DNA from: an uncultured Chthonomonadaceae bacterium
Lineage (GTDB): Bacteria; Armatimonadota; Chthonomonadetes; Chthonomonadales; Chthonomonadaceae
DNA: 64,000 bases
Direction of reading: 5' to 3'
NCBI GenBank assembly: GCA_963835065.1
Contig: CAWIEK010000049.1
Coordinates: 1-64,000, forward strand
A program made the position numbers and the translations under genes. Numbering within the stretch: the first letter of the stretch is position 1; every line of letters begins with the position of its first letter. The notes under the pieces were generated by a model that saw only the letters and a list, made by a program, of their open reading frames with translations, made no database searches and had not been told where the DNA came from. Shown in pieces: positions 57,971 to 61,899 of this stretch.

Positions 57971-58389
57971 GCCGCGCTCCGAATACCGGTTAAGTGTGAA
58001 AAGCGCATTCAGAAAGTGAAAAGAGTGTTCCTCTCCTCTCTTAATGCTACGCTTGTCCTTTAACGCTTACGTGATTGGCGCGAGAATGTCAGCAGGGGAT
58101 GATGCAATAGGAGGTATTCAGGTGTTCGGGTATTCAGGTGTTCAGGTGTTCGGTATTCGGTATTGGGATACAGGTAATTGGTGGGTGGAGGTTGAGGGTG
58201 GATGTGAAAAGCGGCGCGGATGTGTTTCTGCAACGCATCCGTGCCGCTTAAAAGGGCAGCCCCTGCTTCCTACGTTCATGGCGGGAGAACCGGTGAGCAA
58301 CGCCTATCGAGGAGACGCGGGAGGACAGAGGTATGTTCCCAAAATATGACTAATTATGTAGGAAAGGAATATGGCATAGAGGAATTGGT

Positions 58390-60245: not shown

Positions 60246-60283
60246 AAAAATGCGCCAATGGGAATAGATTTCCCATTGGCGCA
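60246..60283 (-). terminator. Intrinsic terminator closing the tRNA-RNA ligase unit
   Basis: tgcgccaatgggaa/ttcccattggcgca stem followed by TTTTT on the minus strand. Confidence 0.8.
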
Positions 60284-61388: not shown

Positions 61389-61467
61389 TGAGAGTGGAGG
61401 GAATCGAACCCCCTTGCTTTCGCCACAAGGTTACAGCTTGCTGCCCGACCATTTAGGCTTCACTCTC
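61389..61467 (-). tRNA. Atypical tRNA-Tyr(GTA), no encoded CCA
   Basis: GAGAGTG/CACTCTC-A acceptor, GCCT/GGGC D stem, GCAAG-CTGTAAC-CTTGT, variable arm GC-GAAA-GC, GGGGG-TTCGATT-CCCTC. Confidence 0.85.
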
Positions 61468-61470
61468 AAA

Positions 61471-61593
61471 ATTCAGGTATTCGGGTGTTCAGGTGTTCAG
61501 AATAATATGACAGTAATACGTTTGCTGCTGCGCAACTAGACTTGCAGTTTAGCTCCTGAATACCCGAACACCTGAACACCCGAATACCTGAAT
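61471..61593. repeat. Inverted pair of 8-mer arrays (ggtattca/ggtgttca) between the two tRNAs
   Basis: attcaggtattcgggtgttcaggtgttcag ... ctgaatacccgaacacctgaacacccgaatacctgaat. Confidence 0.85.
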
Positions 61594-61596
61594 GTA

Positions 61597-61671
61597 TGGA
61601 AGCGGTCGGAATCGAACCGACAACACGTACTTTGCAAAAGTACATCGCTGACCCTTAGGACATGCGCTCCC
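61597..61671 (-). tRNA. Atypical tRNA-Ala(TGC), no encoded CCA
   Basis: GGGAGCG/CGCTTCC-A acceptor with G3:U70, GTACT-TTTGCAA-AGTAC, GTCGG-TTCGATT-CCGAC; weak D arm. Confidence 0.8.
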
Positions 61672-61706: not shown

Positions 61707-61747
61707 CAAAAATACAGCCCGGCCTGAGTTTCCAGACCGGGATGTGC
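61707..61747 (-). terminator. Attenuator-type terminator between leader ORF and tRNAs
   Basis: gcacat-cccggtctg-gaaact-caggccggg-ctgtatttttg. Confidence 0.75.
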
Positions 61748-61776: not shown

Positions 61777-61899
61777 TTAAGACGGTGCTGGAAGGCACAA
61801 CGGTAATGTATATCCGGCGGCATACGCATAGCCGACGGCTTGCGCGTAAGCATAGCCGGTGCAGGCGAGATATGCGGTTGTGGCCGGTGTGGTGTTCAT
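61777..61899 (-). CDS. Putative Tyr/Ala-rich leader (attenuator) peptide, 40 aa
   Basis: Own translation MNTTPATTAYLACTGYAYAQAVGYAYAAGYTLPLCLPAPS; 6 Tyr and 10 Ala; ends ~30 nt before a terminator. Confidence 0.7.
   Translation of the reverse strand: MNTTPATTAYLACTGYAYAQAVGYAYAAGYTLPLCLPAPS

Follow-up and report, generated by a model that had tools for sequence, protein, structure and literature searches.

A leader ORF and terminator resembling an attenuator, with codons matching two supernumerary tRNAs, ahead of a tRNA-Ala–tRNA-Tyr–RNA ligase locus of Chthonomonadales

The window (the whole stretch of 64,000 nt analysed here) contains, on its minus strand, a short leader ORF, an intrinsic terminator, a tRNA-Ala, a tRNA-Tyr and an Rnl5-type RNA ligase gene (Table 1). 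We propose, with a probability of about two in three, that this locus is a demand-sensing attenuated operon that releases spare tRNAs when ribosomes stall. The leader ORF and its terminator are the most telling part of the locus. Canonical copies of both tRNAs are encoded elsewhere in the same genome (hereafter G000, 92% complete), Tyr-GTA on contig C63 and Ala-TGC on contig C51, and both tRNAs of the locus are therefore supernumerary; neither encodes CCA, as is usual for the tRNAs of this genome. The other G numbers denote further genomes compared, including G002, a sister species of the same genus used as the nearest comparison, and a sample of 68 genomes, many of them incomplete, from the order Chthonomonadales; X1 and X3 are DNA contigs from other public sequencing runs, four of which were used for the comparison of the leader. 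The spacer between the two tRNAs is occupied by a MITE/REP-like repeat, the 28-mer of which has 99 matches in G000 at up to 3 mismatches, and the inter-tRNA spacer of G002 differs from this element. The repeat is abundant in the lineage, and was also found near positions 58044–58100 of the window and in array spacers.

Table 1. Features of the locus in the window, and mini-ORFs upstream of array tRNA-Tyr genes in related genomes.
Feature	Position	Strand	Basis
ECF-sigma-type promoter (predicted), GCAACT-N16-TGTCAA	61994..62021	-	positional conservation
Leader ORF of 40 codons (6 for Tyr, 10 for Ala) with YAYA repeats	61777..61899	-	ATG ORF
Antiterminator strand (predicted), last leader codons	61783..61793	-	pairs with 61730-61740
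Intrinsic terminator between leader and tRNAs	61708..61741	-	predicted hairpin
tRNA-Ala(UGC), non-canonical array/phage scaffold	61597..61671	-	ARAGORN
MITE/REP-like repeat, spacer outside the mechanism	61471..61593	.	perfect 28-nt terminal inverted repeats
tRNA-Tyr(GUA) with A8, C21, C38 and A48	61389..61467	-	ARAGORN
Rnl5/DRB0094-family ATP-dependent RNA ligase, 351 aa	60304..61359	-	TIGR02306
Terminator closing the predicted operon	60251..60283	-	14-bp stem and U tract
MESDY mini-ORFs	L046:9454-9480(-), L245:16383-16409(-), L409:906-931(+), L242:9460-9488(-)

Among the 29,053 ATG ORFs of 30 to 70 codons in G000, the leader ORF is the only one in which Tyr accounts for at least 15% and Ala for at least 20% of the residues. 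The binomial probability of six or more Tyr residues is 0.0006, and the leader uses only 12 amino acids, as opposed to the 17–20 found in the leaders of long arrays. The leader of G002 differs by a one-codon indel and eight synonymous changes and has five Tyr, the Tyr codons being kept through synonymous changes; 26 of the 40 aligned codons are identical or synonymous, and the number of Ala codons falls from 10 to 6. The interior of the leader is free of indels in the four runs compared, and several are present in its flanks. The Shine-Dalgarno sequence is weak, with an A-rich stretch upstream.

The terminator begins 35 nt past the stop codon of the leader at the focal locus, and the leader ends about 23–32 nt before a terminator in all eight loci examined. 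The best partner for the 5' arm of the terminator, ranked first of 236 upstream windows (−14.7 kcal/mol), is segment 61783–61793, at the end of the leader. In six of eight loci, including the 16-tRNA array of G000 itself, this best partner lies 15–22 nt before the stop codon; in G002 and G019 it was found elsewhere than in the leader-end segment. In an alignment of 10 homologues, 94.7% of the cells of the terminator helix were paired, with two-sided changes at five pairs (0 of 500 shuffles), and the antiterminator helix was paired in 87.8% of cells, with two-sided changes at two pairs (values reached by 3–4 of 500 shuffles). In a global test of the leader-end duplex, only two of eight loci fell within the lowest 5% relative to shuffles, the focal locus being beaten or equalled in 20 of 300. 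The last Tyr is codon 30 of the leader and the antiterminator corresponds to codons 36–39, downstream of it. As read from the sequence, the locus would possess the parts of an attenuator: a short ORF, a downstream terminator, a predicted antiterminator that covaries, and codons matching the products.

According to the mechanism proposed, transcription would start at the ECF-type promoter and the leader would be translated. A ribosome arriving at the leader stop codon would cover the antiterminator strand, such that the terminator would form and the tRNAs would remain silent. If charged tRNA-Tyr or tRNA-Ala became short, through cleavage, deacylation or starvation, the ribosome would pause on the YAYA codons, and stalling by an antibiotic would produce the same pause in the leader. 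The freed antiterminator would then capture the 5' arm of the terminator, and the polymerase would pass on into the two tRNA genes and the ligase gene. The spare tRNAs, once processed, would probably be charged and take part in decoding, their core being rewired rather than broken.

The classical attenuators trpL, hisL and pheL have leaders enriched in the residue that the operon supplies. The focal leader is similarly enriched in the residues whose supply its operon would serve, but this operon would provide tRNA rather than biosynthetic enzymes, its leader is longer, and the putative antiterminator lies within the last codons. The available texts on two other systems report that uORF composition sets amino-acid sensing for whiB7 of mycobacteria (10.1101/2023.06.02.543512) and that, in Pseudomonas aeruginosa, specified PA5471.1 codons mediate the induction of armZ by a tRNA defect (PMC13041342). 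In both, full translation favours the terminator and stalling favours read-through, with the codons setting the shortage sensed, and by analogy we infer the same switch for the focal leader. However, the output in these systems is a transcription factor or an anti-repressor, whereas here it would consist of tRNA genes matching the codons sensed.

The composition of the leaders was compared with the tRNAs downstream. Tyr accounts for 6 of 40 codons in the focal leader versus 15 of the 669 codons in the leaders of 11 further arrays (Fisher's test, p = 0.0006), and the corresponding value for Ala is p = 0.009. Permutation of leaders and arrays gave p = 0.00001 with 13 pairs, p = 0.0008 and 0.0006 with the 11 pairs remaining without the focal two, and p = 0.011 with the nine pairs remaining without G053; the G000 and G002 pairs represent one evolutionary event, the remaining pairs are kin and hence not independent, and both the start of each leader and the extent of each array were chosen manually, some arrays being cut by contig ends. 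Without the focal pair, the leader frame yielded p = 0.0006 versus 0.08–0.78 for the five other frames; when the focal pair was included, one reverse-strand frame also scored (p = 0.0045). Two paralogous leaders in G053, each over its own sub-array, have diverged towards their respective tRNA sets (28:27 versus 11:41, p = 0.002; 41 of 43,758 in a partition test). The leader–array pairs of G056, G019 and G062 showed no positive match. The 16-tRNA array of G000 lacks Ala and Tyr, and its 59-codon leader lacks Tyr. In a more ambitious reading, to which we assign even odds, leaders evolve to contain the amino acids carried by the spare tRNAs under their control, forming a closed feedback loop in which a ribosome stalled for lack of a given tRNA would switch on a rewired replacement of it and an RNA-repair ligase; the two-tRNA operon would be the minimal case, and its tRNA-Ala would have a so far undescribed architecture, with a long connector, a short D loop and an anticodon stem of 6 bp, missed by standard models in many phages and arrays.

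In G019, G049, G056 and G058, a Tyr-containing mini-ORF of the MESDY type, with a conserved Shine-Dalgarno sequence and start, opens some 40 nt upstream of the tRNA-Tyr of the array (Table 1). These mini-ORFs read into the tRNA-Tyr, and in two of them the stop codon falls within the anticodon loop. This arrangement hints at further Tyr sensing, and ribosome traffic on the mini-ORF might control maturation of that tRNA-Tyr.

An RNA covariance model built from 10 leader loci identified four further loci of the same layout among 12 non-training positions inspected, three before tRNA arrays and one before rtcB; the other eight matches were ordinary terminators and were dropped. One of the training loci also precedes rtcB. 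True leader matches are present in 13 of the 68 genomes of the order. The 11 matches obtained in 150 genomes from outside the order were ordinary terminators only, and a terminator pattern scan of metagenomes (80 of at least 119 loci) likewise returned ordinary terminators and no new leader–array pair. No comparable leader was found at the lone odd tRNAs of G000 (C19, C22, C49:447479 and C49:587868), and G001 and G013 have the tRNA and the ligase but no leader of this type. The odd tRNA calls of G000 include a Cys/Glu pair in which both members have the same unusual D arm (C19:164-333), a Ser(TGA) (C22:76608-76691) and a Cys call whose anticodon is ACA (C49:587868-587941).

The presence of the same leader family ahead of rtcB bears on the possibility that the attenuator is real but senses general translation stress only, such as that caused by ribosome-targeting antibiotics, with the tRNAs a remnant of a long array and the richness in Tyr and Ala incidental. 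A ribosome halted anywhere before the antiterminator would permit read-through, the broad amino acid usage of the long-array leaders is consistent with such a general sensor, and the composition match at the focal locus is a single event. We nevertheless consider this explanation unlikely, given the match in 11 other pairs in the leader frame only, the retention of the Tyr codons through synonymous changes and the limited amino acid repertoire of the focal leader.

The motif GCAACT...TGTCAA occurs at the same place before the orthologous ligase or array loci of G001, G002, G015, G019, G024, G041, G049 and G067. Within G000, it is also found ahead of the long array, of rtcB, of genes for an ECF sigma factor and an HNH protein, and of a locus that has a weak YrlA match. 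A relaxed version of the pattern had 71 matches genome-wide, against 65 in a reversed control, and was not enriched, so the predicted promoter rests on positional conservation only; the motif is assigned to the ECF type from consensus shapes. The rtcB gene (G000:C7:25776-28155(-), L247/L248) is split by about 1 kb with a LAGLIDADG-like ORF, as judged by eye. At G000:C45:48035-52739(-) (L238), the motif precedes two tRNA-like elements (a weak YrlA match of 32.3 bits and a tRNA of 37.3 bits), and the locus also contains a 484-aa protein without Pfam match, a segment resembling positions 1093–1148 of the LSU rRNA, a ThiF protein and a DEDDh exonuclease.

The tRNA-Ala was called by ARAGORN and is unreported by the Rfam tRNA model (RF00005) at its gathering score. 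The C at linear position 8, G3·U70 and A73 given for it in the original prediction could all be read in the sequence. A poorly paired D arm had also been described, and pairing is indeed weak in the standard register, but covariation in the family suggests an alternative register in which two extra nucleotides follow base 7 and precede U8-G9, with the pairs C12-G23 and Y13-R22, so both the C8 and the poor pairing may be partly an effect of numbering. In 138 Ala and Trp sequences sharing the scaffold, the base opposite the fixed G23 is C without exception, and positions 13 and 22 pair in 137; the replacement of C-G by U-A at 13:22 accompanies G48 to U48 in 11 of 12 cases, with four changes needed on a tree of 75 columns. 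We infer that the core is rewired, with the putative 2-nt insert after base 7, U8 and A14 retained, a D loop that is short and an anticodon stem of 6 bp. In the 26:44 pair extending the anticodon stem (paired in 86 of 87 distinct Ala scaffold sequences) and in its altered connector and D loop, the scaffold resembles known tRNAs with such alterations; their connector, however, is shortened, whereas that of the Ala scaffold is probably lengthened.

A search of genomes with a pattern fixing only the letters of the D and T arms recovered 55 loci with 56 matches (47 tRNA-Ala, 2 Trp and 7 of an Oerskovia type). These loci come from about nine phyla, and 44 of 46 Ala loci have at least four tRNA calls (relaxed threshold) within 3 kb. 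The scaffold was also found in at least 120 viral loci, the first 80 of which, with position 8 left free, contained 65 distinct matches (C in 40, A in 25, U in none; 33 Ala and 32 Trp). In plasmids and phages, blastn with the tRNA-Ala as query recovered partial T-arm matches only. In the accessible portion of the literature searched, including a review, no description of the Ala/Trp scaffold was found, and, as the Rfam tRNA model misses it here, phages and arrays may contain more copies than are annotated. The Trp version, known from 51 sequences, has a CCA anticodon and often stands alone in phages (32 viral matches, L106-L185) and in an Evansella genome (L069, L075); it may be related to the tRNAOther of Bacillus cereus. 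In the Oerskovia-type genomes (L051, L054, L057, L062, L085, L089 and L091), the D-arm scaffold is present as a single isolated copy, the anticodon loop of which has 8 nt (ACCA/ACCT) and which has G73.

The elements G3·U70, G2:C71 and A73 are present in 87, 87 and 86, respectively, of the 87 distinct Ala scaffold sequences, the anticodons of which are UGC (79), CGC (6) or GGC (2). The focal tRNA-Ala has this whole AlaRS identity set and would thus be a candidate for alanylation, G3:U70 being the rule for AlaRS (PMC7609411, available text). Three of the 75 positions differ in G002, with all the deviations kept and the anticodon changed from UGC to CGC. There are no differences in X1 (whole gene) or X3 (52 nt), and the adjoining 46-nt spacer has 15 (X1) and 9 (X3) substitutions, as well as indels.

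For the tRNA-Tyr, each of the features listed in the original prediction (A8, C21, C38, G1:C72, A73 and the GTA anticodon) was found in the sequence, together with A48 opposite A15. The variable arm had been called very short, which is overstated, as it has 11 nt (a 2-bp stem and a GAAA loop) versus about 13 nt in the housekeeping tRNA-Tyr of G000. The gene passes the gathering score of RF00005 with 48.2 bits, the 16 long-array tRNAs of G000 scoring 50.3–72.7. Bacterial TyrRS recognizes G1:C72, A73, the GUA anticodon and a class II variable arm. This set is complete in the sequence of the tRNA-Tyr, a candidate substrate of the enzyme. The tRNA-Tyr of G002 differs at 3 of 79 positions and keeps all the deviations, and its stem carries a compensatory change (A30-U40 to G30-C40) that is also present in strain contigs. 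The deviations of both tRNAs are therefore conserved rather than sequencing errors. C38 is shared by 7 of 27 array tRNA-Tyr genes. The complete odd pattern was found in G000 alone among 401 genomes of the phylum (a sample without G002), and the viral contigs yielded one non-tRNA chance match; beyond G002 and close strains, neither of these collections contained a homologue. A second type of tRNA-Tyr, which is more deviant and has a D region that is unpaired over a long stretch (L010:7847-7925, L014:7800-7879 and L046:9351-9427), stands ahead of the ligase in G001 and G013 and within the array of G019.

In relatives, the homologous leader is followed by 4 to more than 25 tRNAs, compared with two at the focal locus. 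The same odd Ala is found in the long arrays of G019, G049, G038 and G056, where His/Tyr/Pro/Glu or Ser/Tyr come after it, from which we read the Ala(odd)-Tyr-ligase unit, as judged by sequence, as a reduced form of the tRNA arrays of Chthonomonadales. G000 itself also has a long array (G000:C49:429807-432286(+), L048), with 16 tRNAs, its own promoter motif, a 59-codon leader and a terminator, followed by an integrase-like ORF; its leader is unrelated in sequence to the focal leader.

The gene downstream of the tRNA-Tyr is predicted to encode an intact Rnl5/DRB0094 RNA ligase: it scores 192 bits with TIGR02306 (cut-off 151), contains an N-terminal OB module (PF21189) and an adenylyltransferase domain (PF09414), and its motif I lysine aligns with that of Naegleria Rnl (5COT). 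These features are shared with DraRnl (DR_B0094), as described in the available text of PMC5397189, but the focal ligase belongs to a tRNA unit and not to an rnl-exonuclease operon. Of the 68 genomes sampled from the order, 8 encode the ligase. In G053 and G058 the gene is enclosed by a tRNA array, and it is directly preceded by a tRNA-Tyr-like gene in G000, G001, G002 and G013, the tRNA gene being a different odd tRNA-Tyr in G001 and G013; the upstream stretch examined in G015 has no tRNA call, and that of G024 has weak calls only. A DDE transposase (IS) interrupts the ligase of G002 (L011:6072-6971(-)), in which the tRNAs and leader are intact, and the ligase of G058 is frameshifted. The Rnl5 ligase of G001 (L010:5554-7680(-)) contains an intein, with a LAGLIDADG domain near motif I.

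These broken ligases, the loss of most array tRNAs at the focal locus and the decaying array seen in G067 would fit the view that the locus is what is left of a horizontally acquired array, is in decay and no longer has a function. This explanation is nonetheless largely refuted, and we regard it as extremely improbable: the tRNA-Ala has accumulated no change against 9–15 in the adjoining spacer, the tRNA-Tyr stem shows a compensatory change, the frame of the leader is preserved and the ligase of G000 is intact. The suggestion that these are selected backup tRNAs, not decayed pseudogenes, thus stands, on the basis of conservation, compensatory changes and array ancestry.

It had also been suggested that the two RNAs act as decoys or ligase guides comparable to YrlA. 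More broadly, they could be tRNA-like decoys, regulators or ligase partners acting outside translation, in the manner of YrlA or of B. cereus tRNAOther, an odd tRNA that can be poorly charged (PMC3399842, available text). The tRNA-Tyr-like gene next to the ligase in four genomes would suit such a role, as would the failure of the Ala scaffold with the Rfam model and the existence of its Trp version, since tRNAOther has a Trp anticodon. The locus also resembles the rsr-rtcB operons with YrlA/Y RNA (RF02553) in having a tRNA-like RNA beside an RNA ligase. However, RF02553 gave no match at the locus up to an E value of 1, no match to the TROVE/Ro60 family (PF05731) was obtained in the 92%-complete genome, and both tRNAs have intact anticodon arms and synthetase identity elements. 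The identity elements and the 7-nt loops are invariant and the anticodon shifts among Ala codons only, the ligase occurs without an upstream tRNA call in the G015 stretch and with weak calls in G024, and the tRNAs persist in G002, where the ligase is broken. We therefore consider a role outside translation to be improbable.

Resistance to nucleases had been a further suggestion. The anticodon loop of the tRNA-Ala is identical in sequence to that of the housekeeping Ala-UGC, and that of the tRNA-Tyr differs at position 38 only, so the suggestion finds no support at the level of sequence. It is highly improbable that the deviations were selected specifically for evasion of anticodon nucleases or other tRNA-targeting toxins, although this could coexist with the attenuator reading; the scaffold is common in phages and is co-located with RNA ligases, and the core and stem sequences do differ from those of the housekeeping copies. 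Independence from modification, also put forward, fared better in one respect. MiaA prefers A36-A37-A38, and, as miaA is present in G000, a tRNA with C38 would probably skip i6A37. By contrast, escape from s4U8 is probably moot, as no ThiI was found over the cut-off in this 92%-complete genome, and for the same reason we dropped the idea that the non-U8 base avoids s4U photo-crosslinking.

The role of the ligase is the weakest step of the mechanism proposed. Anticodon nucleases leave ends other than 3'-OH/5'-PO4, and repair would need end healing. According to the available text of PMC5397189, Rnl5 seals 3'-OH/5'-PO4 nicks in duplexes, and its physiological roles are called uncharted. The ends that would be its substrate thus differ from those left by anticodon nucleases, making tRNA repair by the ligase alone doubtful.

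The available texts describe L-array tRNAs as induced by translational stress and charged (PMC8421152), and place the L-array of the trn operon of Anabaena sp. PCC 7120 under the TrcR repressor (PMC8421152; PMC10272220). The focal locus resembles these arrays in its supernumerary tRNAs duplicating housekeeping anticodons, patchy distribution and link to an RNA ligase, and its relatives are long arrays. However, it has only two tRNAs and is therefore not filed as an L-array but as a reduced descendant; its ligase is an Rnl5 within the unit, its control is a predicted leader-peptide attenuator rather than the TrcR repressor, and the Anabaena array lacks the Ala scaffold. Attenuation is absent from the main texts of PMC8421152 and PMC10272220, and no leader attenuator over tRNA genes was found in the literature searched, the coverage of which extends to few subscription journals. 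L-arrays and leader attenuators are each known; the proposed codon-matched attenuator ahead of spare tRNAs would be the new part.

According to the available text of PMC8421152, little is known of how tRNA genes are differentially regulated, and TrcR is the sole control that we found described for such arrays. If the reading of the locus as a demand-sensing attenuated operon is correct, a codon-matched leader attenuator would be a second, codon-specific solution to the control of spare tRNA genes, and the Rnl5 ligase would become connected with translation stress. As it combines two tRNAs with a leader enriched in two residues, the focal locus would be the minimal and most testable case of such an attenuator.
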